Positions 10,779 to 31,416 of a DNA stretch of 32,000 bases are shown here, piece by piece. A program made the position numbers and the translations under genes. Source of the stretch: Candidatus Woesearchaeota archaeon (GTDB taxonomy: Archaea > Nanobdellota > Nanobdellia > Woesearchaeales > GW2011-AR9); the NCBI GenBank assembly GCA_016188115.1, contig JACPIK010000002.1, positions 895,462 to 927,461 on the forward strand. Direction: 5' to 3'. Below the pieces are notes generated by a model. That model saw only the letters and a list, made by a program, of their open reading frames with translations. It ran no database searches and was not told the DNA's origin. Numbering within the stretch: position 1 is the stretch's first letter; each line of letters starts with the position of its first letter.

Positions 10779-11249
10779 TTAACCAGAATTAGTTATTTCT
10801 GGTTGATTAATTTTTTTTAATATTTCAAACACTAAATACAATTTTTCAACAACCCAAGTAGGTTTTTCACTTTCGCTGCGAGGAAACTCCCGACTATATT
10901 TTCCTTGTTGATACCAAATAGTCTTTATCCCTAAAGCGTTCGCAGCTGCGATTTCAGATTGAATTCTATCCCCCACCACTACCACTTCACTAGATGAAAA
11001 ACCCAAATCTCGCAATGTTTCTTCAAATACCAAAGTATCTTTTTGCTTGACAAATTTAACAATACTAAAAAAAGAAAAAAAAGATTTATTTTTAAAATTT
11101 TCAAAATTAGTATTTCCAGCACTAACCAAAGCAAGTTTAATTCCTAATCGAGTTGTATCTGAAAGCAAATCTAAAGCTCCATCTATAATCACCCCTTTTT
11201 CAGGACAGTACAACGTCCGATTAAAATCAAAAATGACACATTTTATCAT
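10779..11249 (-). CDS. HAD-superfamily hydrolase, small and capless, with a variant motif I
   Basis: Motif I is VIFDFNRTL (D-x-N instead of D-x-D). Motif II is LVSAG. Motif IV is VVVGDRIQSE. The start overlaps the upstream gene's stop by 4 nt. Confidence 0.7.
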   Translation of the reverse strand: MIKCVIFDFNRTLYCPEKGVIIDGALDLLSDTTRLGIKLALVSAGNTNFENFKNKSFFSFFSIVKFVKQKDTLVFEETLRDLGFSSSEVVVVGDRIQSEIAAANALGIKTIWYQQGKYSREFPRSESEKPTWVVEKLYLVFEILKKINQPEITNSG

Positions 11250-12670
11250 CTTATCTCACCGCCTACAAAATACATTCGAATTTCATAACATCGCTTACCT
11301 TTTTTATCACCTAAAACATCGATATCCAGAAGACTTGGAACGAATTGTTCAAAGAGATTGCTTTTTTGACTATCTATCCTCATTTCACGACCAAAAACAG
11401 GAACAATAAGCGGTTTGAAATAACTACTCCCAGTCTCATACTCTTTGAAAAAAACTTTCTTCTTAACTAATAAACCATAATCTCTATCTCCCAATTGAGA
11501 TTGTTCATAGAATCTTGCCAAAGAAAAATCATCTGGAATCAATACCCTACTACTTGGAATTCTTGCACCATAACTAGAAAGTTGCTCATCATTTTCAAGA
11601 ATTCTATTTCGCAAAATTTGGTTTCGACTAAGGTAATCAAAAGTGGGAGTAGGAAAACCTTTTCCATTTATTATAACTTCATAGGAAGTATCGAATGGAC
11701 CATTTGTTTGTTCAACTATGACTCCCATTTTCCTTAGTTGTGAAATTAAGTACTCCCTCTCCAACTTAAAAAAACCTAATTCCTGAGAAACTAGACTTTG
11801 AGGAATTCTAAGAGTATCGTTAAATGTTGAGACAATCTTTTCAATTCCAACGTCTGGCTGTCTACCTAACGCTTTACTAGCACAAAGAATATCCGCAACA
11901 TACCCCACCGCAGGAGATCCTATATCTATTACGTAGATGTCATTACCAAAAAGCATCATATCAACTGAACCAGTGAATGCGACCCTTCCTTCTTCACCGG
12001 TTGCGCGACACAATGCAGAATACGCTGCTTTTGCAGTTTTTACTAACCTCCCATACAAAGGTGCAGACAGTTGAAAAGGTTTATCAGACACACCATAAAA
12101 AAACAAAGGACTTTTGCCTTTACCTCTTTTCTCTGATATTGGACATATTGCCTGAGCCTCATTAAGTAGAGAATCTATTTGTCCAATTTTTGTGGAGTCA
12201 AGCTGATCTAATTGATCTTTTATCTCAAATAGTCTCTCTTTAACGAAATTGCTTGCTTTATCAACAGCAAATGGTTCAACAAATGAAGCAGAAGGTAGAA
12301 TTCTTATCGCACCATCATAACCAAAAGTATCAGACTCAACAACATCAACTAATGAAGTAAACCCAGTAAATGCAGTCTGATCATTGCTTAGACATTTGAT
12401 AAACCATCTACGAAGATCAATAGAATCTGGTTTTGCACAACGTAGCATTGGCGAAAGATAATTTTGAGCCATTGCTAATTCCTCAGCTGAACTGAGAGGT
12501 TCATTTAAACGAGAAAATCCCCCTTTAAATTTTCTCCATCCTTTCACAAGATCAGGAAGAGCATCATATGTTGCACCACTTACTCTTGCAATAGTTGACA
12601 AAACCTGAAATGAATCATCATTTCTTTCAATGCCGACAACCAGCACGTTCCCGTACCAAAGCTCCTGCAC
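11246..12670 (-). CDS. Hypothetical protein, 474 aa, no family recognised
   Basis: Long uninterrupted ORF with a GTG start, translationally coupled to the HAD gene. The C-terminal KRCYEIRMYFVGGEI and GNDIYVIDIGSP strands are vaguely ATP-grasp-like, but I cannot support that assignment. Confidence 0.6.
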   Translation of the reverse strand: MQELWYGNVLVVGIERNDDSFQVLSTIARVSGATYDALPDLVKGWRKFKGGFSRLNEPLSSAEELAMAQNYLSPMLRCAKPDSIDLRRWFIKCLSNDQTAFTGFTSLVDVVESDTFGYDGAIRILPSASFVEPFAVDKASNFVKERLFEIKDQLDQLDSTKIGQIDSLLNEAQAICPISEKRGKGKSPLFFYGVSDKPFQLSAPLYGRLVKTAKAAYSALCRATGEEGRVAFTGSVDMMLFGNDIYVIDIGSPAVGYVADILCASKALGRQPDVGIEKIVSTFNDTLRIPQSLVSQELGFFKLEREYLISQLRKMGVIVEQTNGPFDTSYEVIINGKGFPTPTFDYLSRNQILRNRILENDEQLSSYGARIPSSRVLIPDDFSLARFYEQSQLGDRDYGLLVKKKVFFKEYETGSSYFKPLIVPVFGREMRIDSQKSNLFEQFVPSLLDIDVLGDKKGKRCYEIRMYFVGGEIR

Positions 12671-13093: not shown

Positions 13094-13819
13094 TTACTTC
13101 TCTGCCAATGCATGCATTGATTTACGAAGCGTCCAAAACCCGCCTGCTGCCAGAAGATACCCAGCCATATATAACAAATCTGTGATAGCACCCATTGATC
13201 CTTCCAGATACGTTCCTTGCGCAGTTGTCAACGTAAACAAAACATCCCCTACGAGAATTGCACAACTTGCAATAAAAAAGAACATTAGCGGTTGAGCAAA
13301 ATCACCAATATAACGACTAAAAAAGAGATTACTCATCGCCAATGATACAATAATTGAACTAATAAAAGGATAAAAATAACTAAAGAATGAAATCTCTGCT
13401 CCGCTTGGAGCAATGATCATAAAGAGAAAATAAGAAACAACCCCAACAATACCTACTCCCAATCCAAAGAACTTAAGAGGAAGAGATGAATCTTTATTTT
13501 TCTTAAGCAATGAATGTACTAACGAAATATAAGAAACAACCAGCAATATTGCTCCTGCTGCCCAATAAATATCAGCCATACCAATAGATGCATCAGTATG
13601 TTCAATCTTTTCCATCAAATAAAGAGAAACTTCTCCTAACGCATACAAAGAATACCCTAACACCATAAAGAGAAAAATAAAATAGTTTGAATCATCAAAG
13701 AGTTCTTTAAGTCGATTATGAAATAATTTCTGTAAAACAATAATTCCGCTAATTGCAGATGTAGCCGCACAAACCATAACTAAAGGAGATATTATCTCAC
13801 GAAAATTCTCTATCACCAT
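13094..13819 (-). CDS. Polytopic membrane protein (about 7 TM), function unknown
   Basis: 241-aa ORF of serial hydrophobic helices. A TATA box (TTTAAATA, 13842-13849) lies 23 nt upstream of the ATG. Confidence 0.6.
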   Translation of the reverse strand: MVIENFREIISPLVMVCAATSAISGIIVLQKLFHNRLKELFDDSNYFIFLFMVLGYSLYALGEVSLYLMEKIEHTDASIGMADIYWAAGAILLVVSYISLVHSLLKKNKDSSLPLKFFGLGVGIVGVVSYFLFMIIAPSGAEISFFSYFYPFISSIIVSLAMSNLFFSRYIGDFAQPLMFFFIASCAILVGDVLFTLTTAQGTYLEGSMGAITDLLYMAGYLLAAGGFWTLRKSMHALAEK

Positions 13820-14735: not shown

Positions 14736-16250
14736 CTATACCACCAGCACTTTCTGCTGCCGTACAACACGCACCCGTAATTTCTTAGTATATCCAATAA
14801 ATTCTCCTCCTGCTTGAAAAGGGAATGGCTCAGAACTTGTAAGAACTATTTCTTCACCTTTCAACGCAATAAGAGGAGCTTTGTTAAAACCAAACATTGG
14901 CAGTACTAACGACCATAATCGCAACGGTTTGTTAAACAAGGTAGAATGTGTATTAACACACGCCGTACCATAAACCATACCATCTGCTGCATCAACGTGC
15001 CCAGGTAGCGACCGAACACCATACCCATAATAGGGGATTTTAGCAATAATAATATTCACGCACTTTTTCCAAGAATGGGACACCCCATCAACAGTACAAG
15101 TAAAATGATAAGACCCTTTCACATGAAAAATAGTAGAAAAACTTCCTTTAAGATAATCTAAGAAACCATACGCTGTGCGAGGAGAACTACGGCGAATGAC
15201 TTCTCCATCAATACCAATACCCACAAACAATGTTTGACGTTTTCCCTTGTCCCATTCAATTTCTAAGACATCCATTGTTTTTTCACGAAATGGGAATCGA
15301 GAACGTAAATACTCAAAGCGTTTACCCTTATAAAAATAAGAATAAAACGCATTTCCCGCACCTAACGGAAAAAAACCAATACTCTTCGATGCAAAAAATG
15401 GGTCATTTAACGCGCTCTCAAAAGTTCCATCTCCTCCTGCAATAACAATATGATCTGCAGATCGAAAGCGTTGCGATGCCACTTTGAATAAATTTCCCTC
15501 AGATGGCAAAAAAATCATCTGCGCTTTACGTCTACGAACAAAGACATTTAAGAGACGTCGGCGATAAGTATTATTATAGCCACGCGACTTCTGATTCGTA
15601 AAAACAACCAAAGGAATTGAATGAGCAAGACGCTTTCCTTCACGTCGACGAGCTCTAATAATTTTTCCAAACGAGAAGATATAATGAAGAATACTCACAG
15701 CAGCAATACCTAAACTAATTGCAGTAGCAGTCACCAACCCAAAATCAACCAATGACAAAGAAATTCCTTGTGACCCCGCTGAATGCAACGCAATAAATTC
15801 ATCTATCAGTAAAAAAAGCACAATAAAATACTCTGAAAATATAAGAGCTCGACCATACCATTCTCCTTGTATTTGGACATCTTCACGTCCTGCATGCCAG
15901 CGCACAATGCTCACAATAATATCACGAATAATAAAAAAAACGAGAAAGAACCAAGAAAATGAACCAAAGAGAGTAAAAAAAAGCAACAACCCGCTTACAA
16001 GCACTTTGTCAGCAAACGGAGCAAAAAACGAACGAGCATGGTGTTGAGCATAATGAAGTGCCCCCTCTAAAAGATCGCTTAATAATGCTAAAACCAGCAC
16101 GAATAAAGCACCCACTACAGCAGAAGGAGCTTGCGCTAAAACGAGAACTATAATCAACGGCAACGAAAGAACACGAAAAAATGTAATAATTCTTCGCGCG
16201 AACATATCCTCACAAAAGAAAAGAAAGTTTAAAAGGCTTTTCGTGCTCAC
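14736..16250 (-). CDS. Fusion protein: N-terminal CDP-alcohol-phosphatidyltransferase-like membrane domain (degenerate motif) plus C-terminal diacylglycerol/lipid kinase catalytic domain
   Basis: The N-terminal region SDLLEGALHYAQHHARSFFAPFADKVLV aligns by eye to D-x2-D-G-x2-A-R...G-x3-D-x3-D with several Asp residues replaced. About 5 TM helices follow. The C-terminal domain carries IVIAGGDGTFESALN (DAGK_cat GGDGT motif) and FPLGAGNAF. Confidence 0.7.
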   Translation of the reverse strand: MSTKSLLNFLFFCEDMFARRIITFFRVLSLPLIIVLVLAQAPSAVVGALFVLVLALLSDLLEGALHYAQHHARSFFAPFADKVLVSGLLLFFTLFGSFSWFFLVFFIIRDIIVSIVRWHAGREDVQIQGEWYGRALIFSEYFIVLFLLIDEFIALHSAGSQGISLSLVDFGLVTATAISLGIAAVSILHYIFSFGKIIRARRREGKRLAHSIPLVVFTNQKSRGYNNTYRRRLLNVFVRRRKAQMIFLPSEGNLFKVASQRFRSADHIVIAGGDGTFESALNDPFFASKSIGFFPLGAGNAFYSYFYKGKRFEYLRSRFPFREKTMDVLEIEWDKGKRQTLFVGIGIDGEVIRRSSPRTAYGFLDYLKGSFSTIFHVKGSYHFTCTVDGVSHSWKKCVNIIIAKIPYYGYGVRSLPGHVDAADGMVYGTACVNTHSTLFNKPLRLWSLVLPMFGFNKAPLIALKGEEIVLTSSEPFPFQAGGEFIGYTKKLRVRVVRQQKVLVV

Positions 16251-19426: not shown

Positions 19427-19933
19427 ATGGACAACCTAGTTACGACTGCACAATATGTTCCGGATAATAAGTACGTTGTTTCAAAATCCCCCCTTTATAC
19501 TACTAATTTGGAAGGATGTGTGGCAATAGGACTCGGTGCTGGTACAACACTGGGCTTATGGCATTGTCATGCTGCTGATATTATAAAAAATACTGCCCAT
19601 CTAGGACTTCAAGAATTCCTTCTAGAACTCGAAAAACAGAGCCATCTCTCAAGAAGATTTATGGTTGGATATGTAGTAGGTGGAGATTATGATCGATATG
19701 ATGGAGCAAAACGTATCGCTTATTATCGTCACAATAACCTAATGTGCGAAATGGTAAGACGCCAGGGAGTAAATGTCAAAGAGAGAAAACATCCAGGAGC
19801 ACTTATAGAACGAAGCCTCAAAAGCGCATTAATATATCATGAAAGTGATGAACTTCATCTCAGAACTTTGTTACATAGAAATGTTATTACTAATCCTGCA
19901 ACTGCTCTTGCCAGATTGATAGAAACACACTAG
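19427..19933 (+). CDS. Hypothetical protein, 168 aa; weak CheD-like resemblance
   Basis: NLEGCVAIGLGAGTTLGLWHCH, then VVGGDYD, then RQGVNV....G...R loosely follow the CheD pattern (GSCVAV...GG.aH; fGGA; L...gi.i...d.GG..gR). This is a by-eye comparison only. Confidence 0.5.
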   Translation: MDNLVTTAQYVPDNKYVVSKSPLYTTNLEGCVAIGLGAGTTLGLWHCHAADIIKNTAHLGLQEFLLELEKQSHLSRRFMVGYVVGGDYDRYDGAKRIAYYRHNNLMCEMVRRQGVNVKERKHPGALIERSLKSALIYHESDELHLRTLLHRNVITNPATALARLIETH

Positions 19934-20892: not shown

Positions 20893-22056
20893 TTAATCCA
20901 TCTTTAGAGGAAAGTCCCCTCGTGAACCTGAAAGAAGTGCTAATTTGCCTCGTCGTGCAATTCCTCTTTCAAAAAAGTCAGCCACAGAATCATTAAGTGG
21001 ATCCTGGCCCTTGCTCAATAAAGATAACCCCTCAACGACTCCTGAATCTATTGTAAGATGAGCATCAACAAACCAAGGTGGTAAATCTGGATCAATAAAA
21101 GCAAGAGTAGGCAAAGATATAGGTTTGTCAGAAACTAAACGTCGAGAAAGATTCTCAACAAGAAACTCAAAACCAGTAGAGTAATCAACAACTGCATTTT
21201 TCCAATTTTTATGCGCACTCAAAGTAAAACTATCAAAAAGCCATGCAGAGAGTCGATCTTCAAATGCATCCAGAGCATCAACTAAATAGCGAACCCTAGA
21301 CGCCGAGCTCCCTCTTTTATTATCCCATAAATTTGAAGAAGTTAATGCGGTAAATATACCCTGTTCATCAACCTGCGCAGGTGTGAGATCTCGTATCTTT
21401 TGAGTATCAAAATCAAGAGGACTAAAGTACGCAGGATGTACAAATCGATCACGTCCCCAGAAATGGGAAGAATTACGGATCAACAAAGTGCCATTTTCAG
21501 GATGAGACACACGTAAATAGGAACGTCGATATTCAACTTCAACACCCCGATATTTAGCAATAAAACCAGTTCCTAACCAGTCTGTGGATGTACCTTTACT
21601 CTTATCTGAATCACGTAGTAAACGTTCCATTCCCACAACCTCAAGAAGAGAATAACTATCTCCAAAGCGCTGGGCCATAAAACGCCAGAGAGGAAAAGAA
21701 AAACTCATCACACCAGCTCTCTCGAGTGCATAAGCCACATCATCAATTTTTTCACCAAGCATCTCACCTAGATCATCATGTTGTGTAAGAGCCGATAACC
21801 ACCGCTGTACTCGTTCTGGTTCATCATATCCTATGTGTAACAACGTCATAGCTTCGGCTTCATATGGAAATCTCTCACGAGACCAATGTGGACGATTTCG
21901 ATCTAACTCCCCAAATAGTGTATCGGCAGTAATAGCATCTTTTTCATGAACTAAGTAAGGAACAAGACGGCTCATGGCATGATAATCAGAAAGCTCGCCG
22001 CGTATTTCACTAAGGGCTGTAGGAAGTAATTGAGAAATAGGATTAATAGTGCTCAT
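20893..22056 (-). CDS. Hypothetical protein, 387 aa, cysteine-free and Trp/Arg/Asp-rich
   Basis: Long ORF whose start overlaps the upstream NadE-like gene's stop by 4 nt. I recognise no motif. Confidence 0.6.
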   Translation of the reverse strand: MSTINPISQLLPTALSEIRGELSDYHAMSRLVPYLVHEKDAITADTLFGELDRNRPHWSRERFPYEAEAMTLLHIGYDEPERVQRWLSALTQHDDLGEMLGEKIDDVAYALERAGVMSFSFPLWRFMAQRFGDSYSLLEVVGMERLLRDSDKSKGTSTDWLGTGFIAKYRGVEVEYRRSYLRVSHPENGTLLIRNSSHFWGRDRFVHPAYFSPLDFDTQKIRDLTPAQVDEQGIFTALTSSNLWDNKRGSSASRVRYLVDALDAFEDRLSAWLFDSFTLSAHKNWKNAVVDYSTGFEFLVENLSRRLVSDKPISLPTLAFIDPDLPPWFVDAHLTIDSGVVEGLSLLSKGQDPLNDSVADFFERGIARRGKLALLSGSRGDFPLKMD

Positions 22057-24084: not shown

Positions 24085-24618
24085 ATGGATTCAAACCCCG
24101 AAATATACATTAGTCAAATTGGTGATATGATGCTTTTTCCACAAGAGACAGAGATACCGTCTCAAACTGGACCTACAATGAAATATGCCCCCGCAGTCAG
24201 TCGAGACACTTTAACCCACTATGCTATGGCAGATTTTGGCAAAATGGCGCGAAATGATCCTCAACGCTTTGACCAAACTCTTGGAATCAAAGATGTGCGT
24301 GAAGTATATGTAACAAGTCTGCGTCACGTTGTTGAAAATGCGTATACCATCCTTCGACAGGGTGCGTCAACAAGTGAACTCGCAACAAGAGGATATGACA
24401 CCGCAATGGATCTTATTGATCTTTTCCCTGTAAATTACGCAGTACGAGACAGCCAAAATCCACTACGAGCATCATTAGACCAAAGCCTCACTGCCTTTGC
24501 TCGTGCAAATCCAGACCAATTACAACACGCGCGAGCAACAATGATGGAATACGCCAATGTTGCACAGCGTTATGCGAACAGATTAGAACAAGGATTTGTA
24601 TCATTACCCAAAATCTAA
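24085..24618 (+). CDS. Hypothetical soluble protein, 177 aa
   Basis: ORF with normal composition, convergent with herA across a 14-nt gap. I recognise no motif. Confidence 0.5.
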   Translation: MDSNPEIYISQIGDMMLFPQETEIPSQTGPTMKYAPAVSRDTLTHYAMADFGKMARNDPQRFDQTLGIKDVREVYVTSLRHVVENAYTILRQGASTSELATRGYDTAMDLIDLFPVNYAVRDSQNPLRASLDQSLTAFARANPDQLQHARATMMEYANVAQRYANRLEQGFVSLPKI

Positions 24619-24632
24619 TCGCAAACTCGTAG

Positions 24633-26162
24633 TTACGAAAAAAACGAGTCATCCACACGATATTCTTTTTTCTTTTCTTTTTGTGAAAATTCTGAGAATA
24701 ACGGTACTTTAACAGGCAACGCAAATCGTGTAAATGTAGAGGTAACTAATGCTTCCCCTTTGTCTAACGAAGCTATCGTGCGAGTATCCTGACTAAGGTC
24801 CTGCGGTGCCGATTCAATAATCGCCTGACGTTCTGCACCCATCTCTAAACCAAGAATTATTTTGGTGTTCATATTTGCCAGAATACTTTTCGGGATTTCT
24901 GAAGGCAACTGCGTAATCGCCAGTAACCCAATCTTAAATTTACGTCCTTCGCGTGCAATACTCTCAAAAACATTCGAACCTTGTTCTAACACTTTCTTTC
25001 CTAATACTCGCGGTGCTTCTTCAAGAACAATAGAAATGACAGGTTTATCATCAAGACGACCTTCACGTTTATAGTATTTGTAGCGATCAAATAATTCACT
25101 CGCAATAATACTGCCAATCATAATTTCAAGTGATCCAGAAAAATAACTAGTATCAATAATCACTATTTTACCACGTTCCACTTCATTACATAATTCAGTA
25201 ATCGTGTTCTCTCCTGCTATAGCATCAAAAACCCCGCGTGCTCGCAATTGACCATGATCTAATTCTAAATCAAGCAACGACACGAGTTTACGTTTAACAA
25301 CTGCAATAGTGTCCTCATGAAATGCGACGCCCTCAATGCGTTTTTCCTCAAGAATGCATTTGATCCACTCGTCACCAAACCGTTTATGATACGCATACAA
25401 ACACTGTCGTTGTGGTTCAGAAAGAGCAATCGCCCCACTAAAATGTTCTGGTTTAAGTTTACTTAAATTTAATTTAAGCGTGCGTGTGCCAACCGGCGGA
25501 CTATACGGAGTATAATAGACTACATGTTGTTTAGAAGGATGATCTTTAAGACCCAATCCTGTACGGCCATAATATTCATCATGCGGATCAAGCACCACCA
25601 TTCCCGCATATTCTTTACCAACAACATCCCACAATAAACACGACATCAAATTACTTTTCCCTTTACCTGTGCTTGCTGCAATCAGCATATGATGTGACAA
25701 CACGTCTTTACCTGCAAGAGCAACAGAAAAATCTAACGCCTGACTACCGCTGCGTAAAGACCCTAAAAACAGAGGAGACTGCGGACGGGTAATAAAAGAT
25801 AAATCATCTTTGACAATATTTCGCACTGAAGAAAAGAAGGGAGGAAGCATTTTACACAACGCAGCAGAAGAAATAGATCCTTTTGATTCAATAACTAACA
25901 GGGGTTTAAGTGATGCTACCTGATAATTTCGTAACGCTGGATCAAGAAGGGAAAATTGTTCCTCTTCTAAATTCATTCCTGCAACCATTTCAAGATTTTG
26001 TTGGGAAATTTGGCTGCCATACGAAAGATCATATACTTGCAAGATAAACTTCTTGCCTTCATGTTCAATGACACACAACTCCCCTAATTCAACCCTCTCG
26101 CCTGCTTTAACCCGCATCAAAATCGTTGAAAAGTTACCCCATACCACCTGCCCTTTAATCAT
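24633..26162 (-). CDS. herA: HerA-type (DUF87, FtsK/HerA superfamily) hexameric ATPase/helicase
   Basis: N-terminal HAS-barrel-like [30 protein letters not shown]. Walker A is [22 protein letters not shown] follows. Walker B is [11 protein letters not shown]. The C-terminal motif is [10 protein letters not shown] prefer ATG 26162 because ATTAAAAA (26186-26193) lies 24 nt upstream. The track's TTG at 26228 lies upstream of that TATA. Confidence 0.85.
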
Positions 26163-26185
26163 AGCTATTTCCAGAGACGAATGGG

Positions 26186-26193
26186 TTTTTAAT
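26186..26193 (-). promoter_or_regulatory. TATA box (ATTAAAAA) for herA
   Basis: It lies 24 nt upstream of ATG 26162 on the minus strand. Confidence 0.4.
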
Positions 26194-26233
26194 GATTTGG
26201 GTTGAGAAAGGATTACAATTCCAAACAAAAATC

Positions 26234-26264: not shown

Positions 26265-26519
26265 ATGGAAGCAATTGTCATGCATTTTCGTCAAGGACGA
26301 CATCATCAAAACACTCATCAAATGATTCTGCATATTGCACAATCAGCTGACGAAGCAAAACGCGTTGTAGGAAAACAAGTCGTGTGGACCTCACCCGCTG
26401 GCAAAGAGCTCAAAGGCACCATTTCCGCCCTTCACGGTCGCAATGGCAATGTTCGAGCTATTTTTGCAGAAGCTGGTTTACCTGGTCAAGCTCTCGGTCA
26501 GAAAGTTAAAATTTTATAA
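26265..26519 (+). CDS. rpl35ae: 50S ribosomal protein L35Ae (eL33)
   Basis: GKQVVWTSPAGKELKGTISALHGRNGNVRAIFAEAGLPGQALGQKVKIL is collinear with the archaeal L35Ae C-terminal core (..W.s.sGk...G.i...HG..G.vRA.F...LPGQAlG..V.i). Confidence 0.85.
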   Translation: MEAIVMHFRQGRHHQNTHQMILHIAQSADEAKRVVGKQVVWTSPAGKELKGTISALHGRNGNVRAIFAEAGLPGQALGQKVKIL

Positions 26520-26639: not shown

Positions 26640-27941
26640 TTACTTACGTGTAAAATCTTGTATCTTATCAAAAAAAGCATGAATTCCTGCACGTGCTTTA
26701 TTGATATGATCCCGAAGCACTTTAAGTTGGGCAGAAATCTCATCTGGTGTTCCTTCTATTTTATGATGATGAATATGATCCAAAAAATAAACACGTACTG
26801 CTTCAAGTTCCGCAAGCATATGTGATAACTCTGCTCGATCTTGCGGATGCGCATGAAATTTACTTGGCATGGTACGCATTTGACGCCACGCTTGATCAAA
26901 ATCATGGAGAAATTGCTTAAAATGAGTTTGGAGCTGTTGCTTATGATGACCTTGATTATCCTGTGCAACTAAATGAAGCATCTGCAACGCCTCATCCATA
27001 CTCTTCTGAGCATTAACTAAATGCCCCAACACTCCTGCTGCCTCGTGAGTTTTATGTTTCTTATGTTTCTCATGTTCTTCATGTTTTTTATGCTCAGCAT
27101 GCTCTTTTTCATGACGTTCATGTTCTTCATGCACTTGATGCTCAGCATGTTCTTTTGCATGCTTTTTCTTCTCACTTTGTGTTTCAAACCACTTCGCTAC
27201 CCCTTCCTGTCGTTTTGCAAGCTCAGCATCACGTGTTGCTTTGTCAGGACCTTCCACAACAAAGAGTTTGAGAATATACCAAATAATCGCAATAACCACA
27301 ATTGCTTCCGAATAATAAATAAATTCAGCTAAAGATCCAACTAAAGGTGACGCAAATGCAACCCCTGTTGAAGGCGATCCCAGTAATACATTTGCCATCG
27401 CAGTTAAAATCCATAATAACAAGAAACACAACACTATTTTCATAAACACCGTGCCGCGTGTCTCATCTTTCTTATCAGCAGGATATTTCCACGCCAACAT
27501 AAACAAACCCACAATCGGAGCGCCAACCAGTAAAAATGCAATGGCTGTTGTCCAACCCGTTCCTGCAGCCAAAACAACTGGATCTGGCATAAAATACATA
27601 CTAATAATAGTTAATGCAAGTGAAATTAACGTCGCATGACTTCTGCTAAAAAACATCATCGGCGCTTTGCCATCTTTACCACCTAGACCCGTGATAACTG
27701 CAAAGAAAAGGATAAACGTGACTAAGCCAAACAAAATGCGTGTAAACCAAATCAGCGTATTGCCGGTCAAACCTAACGCCGTAGGGTTGCCTACCATCAA
27801 AATTTTTTGACCAATACCACTTAAAATTCCCGACATCCCAGAACCGGTAGATGTTGGCGATGTTGGAGCTGGTAACTGCGCCATAACAAAAGGCACTGCT
27901 AGCATCAGAATAAGTACAAATACAACCCAGCCTCTTTTCAT
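26640..27941 (-). CDS. Cluster protein P433: signal peptide, 5 TM helices, His-rich linker and His-rich helical cytoplasmic tail; function unknown
   Basis: MKRGWVVFVLILMLAVPFVMA|QLPAPTSPTSTGSG looks like a signal peptide followed by a Pro/Ser/Thr stalk. Five hydrophobic helices follow. A HAKEHAEHQVHEEHERHEKEHAEHKKHEEHEKHKKHKTHE tract comes next. The tail motif ELSHMLAELEAVRVYFLDHI resembles ELSELIDELKYIRDNSLRDL in P492. A TATA box lies 24 nt upstream. Confidence 0.7.
   Translation of the reverse strand: MKRGWVVFVLILMLAVPFVMAQLPAPTSPTSTGSGMSGILSGIGQKILMVGNPTALGLTGNTLIWFTRILFGLVTFILFFAVITGLGGKDGKAPMMFFSRSHATLISLALTIISMYFMPDPVVLAAGTGWTTAIAFLLVGAPIVGLFMLAWKYPADKKDETRGTVFMKIVLCFLLLWILTAMANVLLGSPSTGVAFASPLVGSLAEFIYYSEAIVVIAIIWYILKLFVVEGPDKATRDAELAKRQEGVAKWFETQSEKKKHAKEHAEHQVHEEHERHEKEHAEHKKHEEHEKHKKHKTHEAAGVLGHLVNAQKSMDEALQMLHLVAQDNQGHHKQQLQTHFKQFLHDFDQAWRQMRTMPSKFHAHPQDRAELSHMLAELEAVRVYFLDHIHHHKIEGTPDEISAQLKVLRDHINKARAGIHAFFDKIQDFTRK
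27042..27173 (-). repeat. Low-complexity His/Glu/Lys-coding tract (aa 257-300 of P433) with degenerate short-period DNA repeats
   Basis: The plus strand shows reiterated CATG(T/C)TC(T)T(T/C)/ATGCTCAGCATG units. ATGCTCAGCATG occurs twice. The tract encodes (H-x-E/K)n. Confidence 0.8.
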
Positions 27942-27964
27942 GAGAACAAAGGAAGAAAAATGAG

Positions 27965-27976
27965 TATATAAGATTT
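27965..27976 (-). promoter_or_regulatory. Promoter word AAATCTTATATA (TATA box) for P433
   Basis: It lies 24 nt upstream of ATG 27941. An identical 12-mer recurs at 28985-28996 upstream of P316. Confidence 0.45.
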
Positions 27977-28002
27977 CCTAAATTTAACAGATGAGTTCAA
28001 CA

Positions 28003-28950
28003 CTACGAAGTCGCAGCTGCTTTTGGATTCTCTTCTTCTTTTGGTATCTCTTCTTCCAACCGTCCCCACACTTTCAGATAACTCAAATCTTTCTGATACT
28101 TCTTAAACACCACCAGCAGAGATCGTAACGCCGTGTTGATTTTGACTTCTTGTTTTTCCACCGCAGCTAAGTCGACTTTGATGAGCACATTATAAACATA
28201 AGAAATAATTTGTGTAGCCATGCTCTCAATGTCAGCCTTAGTCATTTGTAACGTGGTATTATCATATGCTCTGATTGTTTGACCATCACCCTCAAAGATC
28301 TTTTTTAACGGGTCTTTCATTGGGCCTTCATTATGGTATATAAAAGACCCGAGACATAGATGAAGAATTTTAAAACATCTCACAATGGTATTACCTAAAA
28401 CAACATCTTTCATCTTAACAAAAGTTTTCTTAATCTCTTCATGAGCCGCAAGAATAGCCGCTTCCTGCGTCTCAATTGCATCGAGATCTTTCTTGACAAG
28501 TAATCCTGTTTGTTGAAGTGCAGCGATAGCTCGTTTTGCTTCTGATTCCTGAACACGTGTCACACGATTCACTCGCCCAACTAACTCACGTTCCGCTGCA
28601 TTTAATTCATTGATAAACCGTTCTCGAACATTACTCATCTGTCGAAAATCAAACCGAGTGTTTTGATTATCCACTGCATTCTCGAATGGCGTTACAAATT
28701 GAGTTTTTAGAAATTTTTTCACATTCTCAACCATCTTATATTCTTTCATCTCTTCAATATATTCAGATAAAAGTCGCTTCTGTTCACGATCGAGTTCTTT
28801 TGCTGCAGCTTTCGCTGCCTTTTTGGTAGCTTTCTTTTTAGCAACACCAGCCGGAGAAGTAGTATCTACGGGAGTAGAAACAGGGATAGGTTTAAACAAA
28901 CGTCTAACTAACGGTACCTTACCAAAAACTGCACGCAAAAATCCCATCAT
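28003..28950 (-). CDS. Cluster protein P316: soluble helical paralog; function unknown
   Basis: The first ATG is at 28950 (the track starts at TTG 28953). An SD-like AAGAGGT lies upstream. The N-terminus is MMGFLRAVFGK, followed by a Lys/Ala-rich linker and long helices. It is paralogous to P285 and to the P492 tail (see findings). Confidence 0.7.
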   Translation of the reverse strand: MMGFLRAVFGKVPLVRRLFKPIPVSTPVDTTSPAGVAKKKATKKAAKAAAKELDREQKRLLSEYIEEMKEYKMVENVKKFLKTQFVTPFENAVDNQNTRFDFRQMSNVRERFINELNAAERELVGRVNRVTRVQESEAKRAIAALQQTGLLVKKDLDAIETQEAAILAAHEEIKKTFVKMKDVVLGNTIVRCFKILHLCLGSFIYHNEGPMKDPLKKIFEGDGQTIRAYDNTTLQMTKADIESMATQIISYVYNVLIKVDLAAVEKQEVKINTALRSLLVVFKKYQKDLSYLKVWGRLEEEIPKEEENPKAAATS

Positions 28951-28984
28951 CAACCTCTTATAGCACCCAATGAGTAAAAAGAAC

Positions 28985-28996
28985 TATATAAGATTT
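28985..28996 (-). promoter_or_regulatory. Promoter word AAATCTTATATA (TATA box) for P316
   Basis: The same 12-mer occurs at 27965-27976. It lies 35 nt upstream of ATG 28950, leaving room for a short SD-containing leader. Confidence 0.4.
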
Positions 28997-29003
28997 ATGG
29001 GAG

Positions 29004-29861
29004 TTACCCTCGAACATCTTTCACCTCACGGCGAGGGAAGAACTTAAACCAGACTTTATGTTCAGGAAGATGATGTTCAAACTTCCTGTAAATCACAAGT
29101 AATTCACGTACATTTGTATTGATATCTTTTTCGATTTGTGCTGCCTTTTGAACCAAACCTAGTACCCCCTCCTCTTTTGAAAAAGTATCCACTATCACCA
29201 AACAATCAGTCACCAACGTACTAAAATAAGTGGGATCTTCTCCACGGCGAGGCTTAGCTACTTTTTTACCAGCATTTCCTTTTTGAACTAAAACTTTCTC
29301 ACTCCATGTTCTGACATGACGAAAAGGATCAGCATTTAACACTATGTCTTGAATATGACGTAAAATCGTCTCTAACTCTGCATGCTTCTCCAGAATCAAC
29401 CGTTCATAAGTCTCGATCTTCAAACGATCTGCTTTATCTAAAAGACCGGCATCATGTAATTGATTCTCCAGCAGCGTAGATGTTTCATATTGACGAGAAC
29501 GATTTCTCCTCGAACGAGAACTCTCTACTTTTTGTATTACTTCCCGAATTTTACCAACAATACCTTTCTCACCTAACGCCGCGGCAAGCTGATCAACATC
29601 CACAATAGGAATATCAGAATCAGCACAATTACGAATAGGAATCAGAAAAACAGAACAATACGCCTCAAAATGACGAACCGCAGTGAGTATTTCCTGCTCA
29701 GTAAGATAGAGGCTCAACGTAAGTTTCAACTCTCGAGACAGCGTTGCAGACGCACGAACAGCCGTTTCTCGCTGCAATCTAGAAGATGCACCACCTAAAG
29801 CACTTTCACCAACACCACCCTTCCATCTTTCTCTTTCAGGTATTTTTCTAAACAATCCCAT
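29004..29861 (-). CDS. Cluster protein P285: soluble helical paralog; function unknown
   Basis: The N-terminus is MGLFRKIPERERW. It starts 18 nt after the P492 stop, so it is probably co-transcribed. Its motifs are shared with P316 and P492 (see findings). Confidence 0.7.
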   Translation of the reverse strand: MGLFRKIPERERWKGGVGESALGGASSRLQRETAVRASATLSRELKLTLSLYLTEQEILTAVRHFEAYCSVFLIPIRNCADSDIPIVDVDQLAAALGEKGIVGKIREVIQKVESSRSRRNRSRQYETSTLLENQLHDAGLLDKADRLKIETYERLILEKHAELETILRHIQDIVLNADPFRHVRTWSEKVLVQKGNAGKKVAKPRRGEDPTYFSTLVTDCLVIVDTFSKEEGVLGLVQKAAQIEKDINTNVRELLVIYRKFEHHLPEHKVWFKFFPRREVKDVRG

Positions 29862-29879
29862 GGCATCACTTCAAGACAA

Positions 29880-31358
29880 TTAAGCAGAACCACCAGAATG
29901 CTTTACCCCATTTAAAATTGATACTAATCCTTGGATATTAATATTTGCCCTTTCCTCAGCAGTAGCCAGATCACGAAGAGAATTATCTCTTATGTATTTT
30001 AATTCATCAATTAACTCACTCAATTCTTTATTTGGAGAGGTAGAAATACCCAATCTAGGTTTAAACGCTTTTTCAAACCATTTTTTACTTTTATCAATAT
30101 GAGTGAGGATACCACCTAACTGCTGCCGAAGTTCTTCATGAACACGAAGTATCTCCTGGAGTGGAACTTCTGCTCGGTCATGAATCTCCTGCGTAATCGC
30201 CCCATCTTCTAATAATTTTTGTAATAATTGTTGTGCTGATTCTTCTTGTCGAGCAGTACTGCGAGTCAATCTTCCAGATAAAAAAAATCCTCGGTCTACT
30301 GCTCGATGAGCTTTTTTCACTTCATCTAAAAGTTTTTTGAGATATTCATTTCCCGGTTTAAAATTAATATATGTAACACGACCAGTTCTTTCAACTGGAT
30401 TAAAGACAGCCAAATTTTCATCACTCAAAAGATCATAAATTTCCTTTAGCAGCTTGGTCATCTTCACTTCTTCAAGATACTCATTCAAAAGATTCTTCTC
30501 TTCTCTGTCTTCTCCTTCCCCAAGATCTTCCTCTGCACTTTCAATAGCTTCAACTTCTTCATCACTTGCCCCTTGAGCTTTCGCTTTTGCCGCAGCATCT
30601 TTATCCAACGGATTGATACCTCTTCTCTTAAACAAACTACCTATACCCTCTTTAGCTTTATCAAACGCTGCAGGAATATTATGGTCTTCATGTATTCCCC
30701 CTTTCGCGTGCGTGCTAAACGCAGAGCCAATGGATACCAAAGCGAGAATAACCAAACCAGCCCCAGTTAATCCAGAGAATACAGTACCCTCTAAAAATTG
30801 AGCAAGCTCAGCAGAATCACCACTTGCTGCGCCAAAAGTTCTACGTACCCAGAACCACATAACCACAATCGTAACCATAATTGCTGCACGAACCCAAGGA
30901 TGCTCATCAAAGAACCAATATAACAACCCCAACATGATAAATGGCAGCACCACTAACGCTGTTGAAAACAACGTAACATATTCTGTTGCCGCAACAAAAA
31001 TAACATTCATGGGCATCAACACCCAACTTAAACTCACGATTGCAAACGCAATAATAAACGCATATCCAGGAGGAATACCTACTTTCTCAGAAATACCATA
31101 CGCAGCAACACCAAGAATACCCAAAATAACAAGAATGACCAGACCAACTTGAGGAATGACTGGTTTATCTAAAAGACCAATATCAACAAGCCAATTCAGA
31201 GTAAGAAAATTATCCGCATTAGACGCAGAGAGACCAAGAGCATGCGCAACCCACGTAAAAGGATCAGTTGGATCACCAACCGCTGCTAAAACAGAGGGAA
31301 CAAACAGCGAACCAACTAGCAGTAAGAGTAATACTAAAGATACACTACGCTTTATCAT
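29880..31358 (-). CDS. Cluster protein P492: signal peptide, 5 TM helices, acidic linker and cytoplasmic helical domain paralogous to P285/P316; function unknown
   Basis: MIKRSVSLVLLLLLVGSLFVPSVLA|AVGDPTDP looks like a signal peptide. Five hydrophobic helices follow. The acidic linker is DEEVEAIESAEEDLGEGEDREE. A roughly 200-aa helical domain follows. An SD-like AGAGGA lies 9 nt upstream. Confidence 0.7.
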   Translation of the reverse strand: MIKRSVSLVLLLLLVGSLFVPSVLAAVGDPTDPFTWVAHALGLSASNADNFLTLNWLVDIGLLDKPVIPQVGLVILVILGILGVAAYGISEKVGIPPGYAFIIAFAIVSLSWVLMPMNVIFVAATEYVTLFSTALVVLPFIMLGLLYWFFDEHPWVRAAIMVTIVVMWFWVRRTFGAASGDSAELAQFLEGTVFSGLTGAGLVILALVSIGSAFSTHAKGGIHEDHNIPAAFDKAKEGIGSLFKRRGINPLDKDAAAKAKAQGASDEEVEAIESAEEDLGEGEDREEKNLLNEYLEEVKMTKLLKEIYDLLSDENLAVFNPVERTGRVTYINFKPGNEYLKKLLDEVKKAHRAVDRGFFLSGRLTRSTARQEESAQQLLQKLLEDGAITQEIHDRAEVPLQEILRVHEELRQQLGGILTHIDKSKKWFEKAFKPRLGISTSPNKELSELIDELKYIRDNSLRDLATAEERANINIQGLVSILNGVKHSGGSA

Positions 31359-31390: not shown

Positions 31391-31416
31391 CTTTTAGGGT
31401 ATTTAAACTTTTAGGG
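31391..31416 (-). promoter_or_regulatory. TATA box (TTTAAATA) bracketed by a perfect 9-nt direct repeat, upstream of P492
   Basis: The plus strand reads CTTTTAGGG-TATTTAAA-CTTTTAGGG. The TATA box lies about 42 nt upstream of ATG 31358. Confidence 0.4.

Follow-up and report, generated by a model that had tools for sequence, protein, structure and literature searches.

The stretch of DNA analyzed here (the window) comprises 32,000 nucleotides (nt) from a Candidatus Woesearchaeota archaeon (contig JACPIK010000002.1, positions 895,462 to 927,461) and carries towards one end a run of minus-strand genes encoding the proteins P538, P492, P285, P316 and P433. The last four correspond to open reading frames (ORFs) singled out in an initial annotation, and all were found at the coordinates listed in Table 1. 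A 98-amino acid (aa) ORF at the window edge proved to be the C-terminus of P538 when the same region was read on Logan contig L001; this fifth paralog is 538 aa in length and starts beyond the window end, its full gene occupying L001:5732-7348. Profile scanning of the window detected no paralogs further to these five. The genes encode a membrane-protein system, located between the S19e and L35Ae ribosomal protein genes, which is an undescribed, narrow family of the Woesearchaeota-type (DPANN/Nanobdellota) archaea and is vertically inherited in them. Two kinds of unit, A and B, make up this system, each pairing a four-transmembrane (4-TM) module with a tail that has a TM helix of its own. The window genome has the most elaborate version seen, with two fused A units (P538 and P492), a fused B unit (P433) and two A tails lacking a TM helix (P285 and P316).

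Homology among the proteins was assessed by BLASTP and by shuffle statistics. P316 and P285 aligned over approximately 270 residues with 24% identity (53-55 bits with composition-based statistics), P316(55-176) aligned with P492(284-412) with 29% identity (54 bits), and the membrane regions of P492 and P433 aligned with 25% identity (37 bits). Smith-Waterman scores were compared with those of randomized sequences, 500 shuffled globally and 500 within windows of 20 residues, giving z = 18-22 for P316/P285 and z = 10-17 for P316 and the P492 tail, the real score being reached by 0/500 shuffles for both pairs, with z = 6-7 for P316 and the P538 tail and z = 8.5 for the P492/P433 membrane regions. 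The three sequence modules previously aligned by eye are therefore shared through true homology rather than coiled-coil composition. The P433 tail gave z < 1 in every pairing, was not picked up by the A-domain profile (8 bits for P433) and, when the soluble A domain (25 sequences) and soluble B tail (7 sequences) were compared by hhalign, produced a probability of approximately 1%. On this comparison, from which the TM helix had been removed, the P433 tail was rejected as a homolog of the A domain; early A/B cross-matches of 27-32 bits arose from a shared TM helix (E-[FY]-x-[ED]-Y-[AS]...YY) and the charged linker. As its tail has no detectable relation to the others, P433 is paralogous through its membrane part only. 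The initial annotation had described the four proteins as mutually paralogous, which holds for the modules of P492, P285 and P316 and for the membrane domains of P492 and P433 but does not extend to the P433 tail, and the tail module said to join P492 and P433 did not hold up. Its proposal of anchored and soluble versions of one helical module likewise applies to P538, P492, P285 and P316, the P433 tail having no detectable relation to that module.

Hydropathy analysis indicated a signal-peptide-like segment and five hydrophobic helices in both P492 and P433, as had been proposed, and none in P285 and P316. Lys and Arg counts for the loops of P433 were 1/0/0 outside versus 3/5/8 inside, and since these loops follow the positive-inside rule the tails of the 5-TM proteins are placed in the cytoplasm, again in agreement with the initial annotation. 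The 4-TM modules of the A and B units are homologous and can be aligned readily; TM2 is followed by an invariant Pro, TM3 contains the motif G-x-P-x-x-G, and Arg/Lys residues are conserved at helix ends. A signal peptide followed by a 4-TM module with the invariant Pro was found in P538, P492 and P433, which scored 118-172 bits against the profile of this module (TM4 profile). P492, at 118 bits, was included in the membrane alignment (A6) and has an ortholog from another metagenome, P0004, that is 43% identical. P538 has a lipobox-like LTGC signal peptide, five TM helices and an A domain, its TM domain being 48% identical to that of P492 (178 bits). A match of the P433 membrane part to DUF5671 (22 bits) was below cut-off and present in 1/20 members, and was treated as chance.

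The A domain is defined by the motifs R-E-x-x-x-L-x-E-Y-x-E-E, R-x2-R-x-T-x-R-Q and E-x2-I-L-x2-H. These were found in P492, P285 and P316, which scored 161-197 bits against the A4 profile, and in P538, the tail of which scored 47 bits against an A4 profile built without it. The in-window fragment of P538 also matches A profiles, and its A domain has an extra C-terminal extension of approximately 70 aa beyond the family K-[VL]-W motif. Alignments of 16 and 25 sequences identified conserved residues in helix 1 (R56, L62, E64, Y65, E68, K70 and E71), helix 2 (A120, R127, R130, T132, R134, Q135, L142 and L146) and helix 3 (E164, I167, L168 and H171), mostly at non-heptad positions, together with a C-terminal Trp. 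Y65, E68 and H171 are invariant in the 16-sequence family alignment, and H171 is invariant in 25/25 sequences and followed by acidic residues (H-[DE]-[ED]). An AlphaFold 2 (AF2) model of P316 from the 16-sequence alignment (predicted local distance difference test (pLDDT) 72.8, predicted template-modelling score 0.65) consisted of four long helices at residues 44-95, 103-149, 154-205 and 239-302; a model from three paralogs alone was unusable (pLDDT 45). In such an up-down bundle the conserved residues of helices 1 to 3 and, for the window paralogs, that at position N273 in helix 4 would lie at one level. These data show that the A domain has a conserved fold of a specific kind, marked by a set of polar motifs, and is not a generic coiled coil.

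The two TM-less A-domain proteins keep the M-[GA]-[FL] start of the family but not its TM helix. In alignment A4 the P285 N-terminus, MGLFRKIP, retains the family N-terminal motif with the TM helix gone, and P316 has a basic amphipathic N-terminus, MGFLRAVFGKVPLVRRLF (hydrophobic moment approximately 0.43), followed by a Lys-rich linker; gene callers place the P316 start at an ATG two codons in, producing a 314-aa protein. P285 and P316 are derived forms of a protein whose N-terminal TM helix is present in every other genome examined.

P433 combines in one gene what is encoded by two in all other genomes examined, namely a 4-TM protein of approximately 185 aa and the TM helix of a tail protein, and its membrane part is 39-45% identical to the separate 4-TM proteins of L003-L006. 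Its tail is separated from the membrane by a linker almost without Pro or Gly, in which residues ~258-300 are a low-complexity, His-rich stretch (HAKEHAEHQVHEEHERHEKEHAEHKKHEEHEKHKKHKTHE). B linkers across the family are 45-73% charged and Pro/Gly-poor, and that of P433 is probably a stiff single-helix spacer. Since the linkers of orthologs are E/K/R-rich or Q-rich at this position, the His-richness is specific to the window genome and may reflect metal binding or mere compositional drift. A 103-aa ORF rich in Phe, Met and Leu runs antisense inside P433 (window 27021-27332, plus strand); its sequence mirrors the codons of the His/Glu/Lys-rich linker, and it is almost certainly not a gene.

Along P492-P285-P316-P433 the intergenic gaps are 18, 50 and 61 nt. 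A spacer of 241 nt separates P538 from P492 and contains the TATA-box-like element TTTAAATA approximately 42 nt upstream of the P492 ATG, directly ahead of which is the sequence AAAGAGG. The presence of this possible TATA box suggests that P492 through P433 may form a transcription unit separate from P538, with a candidate promoter of its own.

Conservation of the cluster as a unit, the lack of which would by the initial annotation have refuted its proposal, was found in related archaeal genomes. Three local profiles, one each for the 4-TM module, soluble A domain and soluble B tail, were used to annotate sixteen loci from different samples or metagenome-assembled genomes, and revealed a recurrent plan in which Cbf5, L31e, a 57-aa ORF and S19e lie on one strand, with unit A and usually unit B on the other, followed by a convergent L35Ae gene. 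The chromosomal site is fixed, with divergently transcribed S19e-L39e-L31e on one side and convergent L35Ae on the other. S19e (minus strand) is followed by unit A in 16/16 loci, unit B comes next in 11 of the 12 loci with that side visible, and L35Ae (minus strand) ends the locus in L001, L003, L005, L011 and L014. The cluster of the window genome (L001) occupies this same position between the S19e operon and L35Ae, the latter at window 26265-26519, with three additional small genes after S19e. Two of the loci, L003 and L004 (CAYWPJ010000010.1 and CAZCXW010000025.1), are labelled 'uncultured Methanosarcinales archaeon'; this label looks wrong, since their Cbf5, L31e and S19e share 68-76% identity with the counterparts in the Woesearchaeota genome and the gene order is the same.

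Unit A consists of a protein of approximately 180 aa (signal peptide or lipobox plus 4 TM) and then an A-tail protein, in which a short N-terminus lies outside and a single TM helix leads to a cytoplasmic helical domain of approximately 220 aa. The two parts are split in 7 loci (L003, L004, L007, L008, L013, L014 and L015) and fused in 9 (L001, L002, L005, L006, L010, L011, L012, L016 and that of P0004). Unit B consists of a homologous 4-TM protein and then a tail with its own TM helix, a charged linker and a helical end domain of approximately 130 aa; it is split wherever the junction between 4-TM module and tail is visible, the P433 fusion of the window genome excepted, and in L005 the junction reads TAAATG. 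Such repeated fusion and fission indicates that the 4-TM protein and its TM-anchored tail are one functional 5-TM unit, and the loci show units A and B to be ancient paralogs kept side by side. L014 (L014:2865-4470) has unit A alone between S19e and L35Ae, as a 177-aa 4-TM protein and a 266-aa tail, and may represent a minimal or ancestral form of the system. Several loci are interrupted by non-partner inserts (Table 1), which are selfish or unrelated genes and are not conserved.

Table 1. Features of the cluster in the window, and inserts in loci of other genomes
Feature	Position	Strand	Basis
P538, C-terminal ~130 codons; fifth paralog, directly upstream of P492	31600..32000	minus	translation
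TATA-box-like element TTTAAATA	31400..31407	minus	read directly from sequence
P492, whole gene; fused A unit	29880-31358	minus	ORF translation; NCBI record HYV86_04905, a hypothetical protein of Candidatus Woesearchaeota archaeon on a 1.47-Mb contig
P492 membrane part: signal peptide, residues 1-25 (cleavage between ...VLA and AV), extracellular amphipathic segment, 4-TM module, TM5	30714..31358	minus	TM4 profile; five TM by hydropathy
P492 cytoplasmic A domain, residues ~257-487, acidic linker ahead	29898..30590	minus	A4 profile, 178 bits
P285, TM-less A-domain protein	29004..29861	minus	A4 profile, 161 bits; no hydrophobic segment
P316, TM-less A-domain protein	28003..28953	minus	A4 profile; AF2 model
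P433, whole gene; fused B unit	26640-27941	minus	ORF translation
P433 membrane part: signal peptide (cleavage between ...VMA and QL), 4-TM module of B type, TM5	27243..27941	minus	TM4 profile, 172 bits
P433 His/Glu/Lys-rich charged linker, residues ~234-300	27042..27242	minus	composition: 72% charged over 60 aa
P433 C-terminal helical domain (B tail), residues ~301-433 and stop codon	26640..27041	minus	B-tail profile, 177 bits
Three MNT-type nucleotidyltransferases and HEPN gene between units A and B	L004:10343-13974		
Reverse-transcriptase fragment after unit B	L003:12273-12932		
Fic gene between S19e and unit A	L016:1287-2201		
HEPN gene, upstream	L011:57-563		

An exhaustive HMMER search of 1.84 billion representatives (cut-off E <= 1e-3) identified 24 relatives, a count obtained with a query alignment (A3) that had lost most TM columns and exclusive of 4-TM-module and B-tail queries. 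The relatives fall into two size classes, one of 245-290 aa with an N-terminal TM helix and the domain, the other of 400-477 aa with a signal peptide or lipobox, approximately five TM helices and the domain. When P316, P492 and the five-protein alignment were used in word-indexed homology searches, nothing beyond the queries was returned. When clusters were looked up for 10 of the HMMER relatives all were singleton or two-member and each was on one contig, indicating that the family is very rare in public data; genome and metagenome scans with one narrow peptide pattern (4 loci each) are no measure of prevalence. No relatives were found in viral contigs in an IMG/VR scan, and the family is unmentioned in PMC5898192 and in bioRxiv 10.64898/2026.05.13.725050.

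The initial annotation had recognized no family for these proteins, and Pfam, NCBIfam, PADLOC, PHROGs, PDB-sequence profiles and Foldseek all gave the same outcome, with no significant match. Pfam produced none for the four cluster proteins or for 46 family members scanned, NCBIfam had no match for the cluster proteins, and PHROGs gave nothing below E 0.05. With PADLOC the sole match among the five cluster proteins was a marginal one of P316 to RmrA (E 7.8e-4, 16.8 bits), and a defence or phage origin was rejected on the combined PADLOC, PHROGs and IMG/VR scans. Neither the A domain nor the 4-TM module, used as profiles against PDB sequences, had a significant match, one to the RPW8-like coiled-coil domain of NRG1 (E 0.019) being discounted, and the P316 model had no Foldseek match in PDB or BFVD at E <= 1e-3.

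The remainder of the window is chromosomal housekeeping, including genes for the thermosome, histidyl-tRNA synthetase, sugar-nucleotide enzymes, signal-peptide peptidase and L35Ae. Window 24633-26228 (minus strand) encodes a HerA/DUF87 ATPase that is divergent and has a HAS-barrel; it matched HerA models in PADLOC, scored far under the NCBIfam HerA and CedD cut-offs, and had no NurA, Mre11 or Rad50 partner among the window ORFs scanned against Pfam. A 504-aa fusion of a CDP-alcohol phosphatidyltransferase and a diacylglycerol-kinase catalytic domain (14736-16250, minus strand) is unusual for lipid synthesis. ORFs of 168-474 aa without a Pfam match lie at 11246-12670 (-), 13094-13819 (-), 19427-19933 (+), 20893-22056 (-), 24085-24618 (+) and L001:4779-5654; among them is a 291-aa gene just upstream of P538 that other loci do not conserve at that position.

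We tentatively favour a role for the system as a membrane-anchored scaffold or tether, in keeping with the membrane-associated assembly suggested in the initial annotation, over one as a known type of enzyme or as a secretion channel driven by an ATPase. The conserved unit contains no ATPase, enzyme, known transporter, secretion, defence or phage domain, and its constant address beside core ribosomal protein genes suggests that it is inherited vertically and has a constitutive role in the cell. In a scaffold of this kind, A and B units placed side by side would form a hetero-oligomeric membrane platform, and the A bundles would bind one another or a cytoplasmic partner through one conserved polar patch formed by R56, E64, Y65 and E68 of helix 1, R127, R130, T132 and Q135 of helix 2, and E164 and H171 of helix 3. 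The stiff charged helix of the B tail would keep its end domain some nanometres below the membrane, and P285 and P316 could attach peripherally, either by their basic amphipathic N-termini or through bundle-bundle contacts. Several points weigh against this interpretation. The function is drawn from architecture alone, hetero-oligomerization of A and B solely from gene adjacency, and the placement of the patch at one level from the helix register of an AF2 model, rather than from coordinates, the modelling having covered P316 and not the membrane module. Unit B must also be dispensable, since L014 carries unit A alone. Moreover, the Arg/Glu/Tyr/His cluster fits a catalytic, ligand-binding or phosphotransfer site equally well. 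It is conceivable, if doubtful, that the hetero-oligomeric 5-TM units form a lineage-defining machine in which a bundle site composed of the invariant His and the Arg/Glu/Tyr residues is catalytic, phosphotransferring or ligand-gated and serves a process particular to ultra-small symbionts.

The conserved membrane module itself brings a transport function into consideration, in which two parallel 5-TM units, A and B, would make up a pseudo-symmetric 10-TM pore or carrier with the bundles gating it or sensing a ligand, as in CorA, bestrophin and PhoU-regulated transporters. Heterodimeric transporters typically consist of paralogous membrane units in tandem, the invariant Pro at the end of TM2, the G-x-P-x-x-G motif and the helix-end Arg/Lys residues are common to A and B, the polar cluster of the bundle could bind an ion or ligand, and the P433 linker is His-rich as in some metal transporters. 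However, the TM cores are without conserved acidic or polar residues, none of 20 membrane modules scanned matched a transporter family, the His-richness is confined to one genome, and the extra TM-less tails fit a transporter poorly, so that we regard a channel or transporter as unlikely. Improbable, too, is a signalling function in which the invariant His of helix 3 acts like the phospho-accepting His of a DHp or Hpt domain. Its conservation, the acidic residues that follow it and the predicted fold of four long helices are consistent with such a function, as is the name 'signal transduction histidine kinase' given by JGI to P0019 (L011:653-2086), but the 26 members scanned gave no match at E <= 1 to HisKA, Hpt or HATPase_c models, the locus has no conserved kinase or receiver gene, and the JGI label was set aside as Pfam gave it no domain support.

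The initial annotation had offered a VirB6/TrbL-like channel as a less likely alternative and a remodelling assembly as a variant of the scaffold. VirB6 has an outside N-terminus, approximately five TM helices and a cytoplasmic C-terminal tail, a topology that P492 and P433 resemble, and a VirB6/TrbL-like or Ced-like translocation system might be powered by the HerA/DUF87 ATPase, of the HerA/VirB4 superfamily, encoded 400 nt from the cluster, a HerA gene again following L35Ae in L014 (66% identity). The L35Ae gene, on the opposite strand, lies between HerA and the cluster, L003, L005 and L011 lack HerA at that position (so that it is adjacent in 2/5 loci with that side visible), no TrbL, VirB6 or Ced match was obtained at E <= 1 with P492, P433, P538 or the 20 membrane modules, and neither pilin-like or other type IV secretion genes nor any family relatives on contigs of viruses or mobile elements were found. 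As HerA is conserved about as much as the ribosomal proteins its adjacency points to housekeeping synteny, on which basis a HerA-coupled secretion system was rejected, and translocation of this type is decidedly improbable. The cluster differs from VirB6/TrbL systems also in its chromosomal location, its synteny with ribosomal protein genes and its vertical inheritance. ESCRT-III, PspA and Vipp1 are membrane-acting helical proteins whose N-termini are short, basic and amphipathic, and a remodelling polymer of this kind with membrane-anchored nucleators is suggested by the MGLFRK... and MGFLRAVFGK... N-termini, which resemble those of ESCRT-III/PspA, by the all-helical domain with long helices, and by the presence together of anchored and TM-less copies. 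The MG.. start is, however, the family-wide beginning of split tail proteins, hhalign comparison with E. coli PspA and human CHMP3 gave a probability of 0.1%, Snf7 and PspA_IM30 were unmatched in Pfam scans of 26 members, the family profile found none of these proteins among PDB sequences, and there is no Vps4-type ATPase at the locus. Structure searching did not recover the alpha1-alpha2 hairpin fold of ESCRT-III/PspA/Vipp1, no structure of these proteins being among the 50 best Foldseek PDB matches listed, and the remodelling variant is unsupported and very improbable. That the similarity is merely coiled-coil or compositional and the ORFs unrelated fast-evolving fillers is consistent with the P433 tail comparisons, which are no different from shuffles, but z of 10-22 persists under composition-preserving local shuffles, non-heptad residues (Y, H, W, R, Q and T) are invariant throughout 25 sequences and synteny is kept in 16 loci. 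This explanation is refuted for P538, P492, P285, P316 and the membrane modules, and can be given almost no weight overall.

Roughly half of the genes of DPANN archaea are without an assigned function, and their envelope organization, division and connection to the host are poorly understood. The present family is one uncharacterized DPANN family among many, with a few dozen sequences, and its importance hinges on its function; were the lineage-defining machine to exist, the process served could be, for example, envelope or division organization or host-contact exchange. The system is nevertheless compact and sharply delimited, the natural fusions and fissions reveal which parts cooperate, and the invariant His and the Arg/Glu/Tyr patch are open to mutation, all of which makes the system a tractable target.

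Among known structures, the best Foldseek PDB matches to the four helices of P316, each of approximately 50 residues, included designed bundles (8gl3 and 4uos) and the ClyA-type toxin components HblL1 (7nmq), XaxB (6gy7), MakA (7p3r) and AhlC (6h2e). The best E-value was 0.04, and template-modelling scores reached 0.42/0.64 for a designed bundle alone. Membership of the ClyA-type toxins was rejected (E 0.045-0.6, scores of approximately 0.2 and a root-mean-square deviation of 24-39 Å); these toxins are secreted and soluble whilst A domains are cytoplasmic and N-terminally anchored, and the likeness of the P316 model to the bundles and toxins is one of generic fold class, not of family. In organization the system resembles MotA/MotB, ExbB/ExbD and TolQ/TolR, in which a multi-TM subunit is paired with a single-TM subunit, in that tandem, translationally coupled genes for an approximately 4-TM protein and a single-pass protein produce one membrane unit. 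However, the partner with one TM helix is here oriented N-out/C-in and has its domain in the cytoplasm, opposite to MotB/ExbD, and the 4-TM protein has a signal peptide and, unlike the MotA/ExbB type, no cytoplasmic loop domain. A MotA/ExbB-type stator was rejected on this reversed topology, the absence of a Pfam match and the lack of a conserved mid-membrane Asp in the tail TM helices. EzrA, the b/b' subunits of F-type ATP synthase and LemA are N-terminally anchored, elongated helical cytoplasmic proteins, b/b' occurring as paralog pairs, and the A-tail proteins are like them in that a short N-terminus on the outside and a single TM helix precede an all-helical cytoplasmic domain. The ATP-synt_B, EzrA and LemA models gave no match at E <= 1, and the motif set REKT-LL-EY-EE-KE, R-x2-R-x-T-x-RQ and E-x2-IL-x2-H has no counterpart in these proteins, from which the present system is further distinguished by the obligatory 4-TM partner that it alone possesses.

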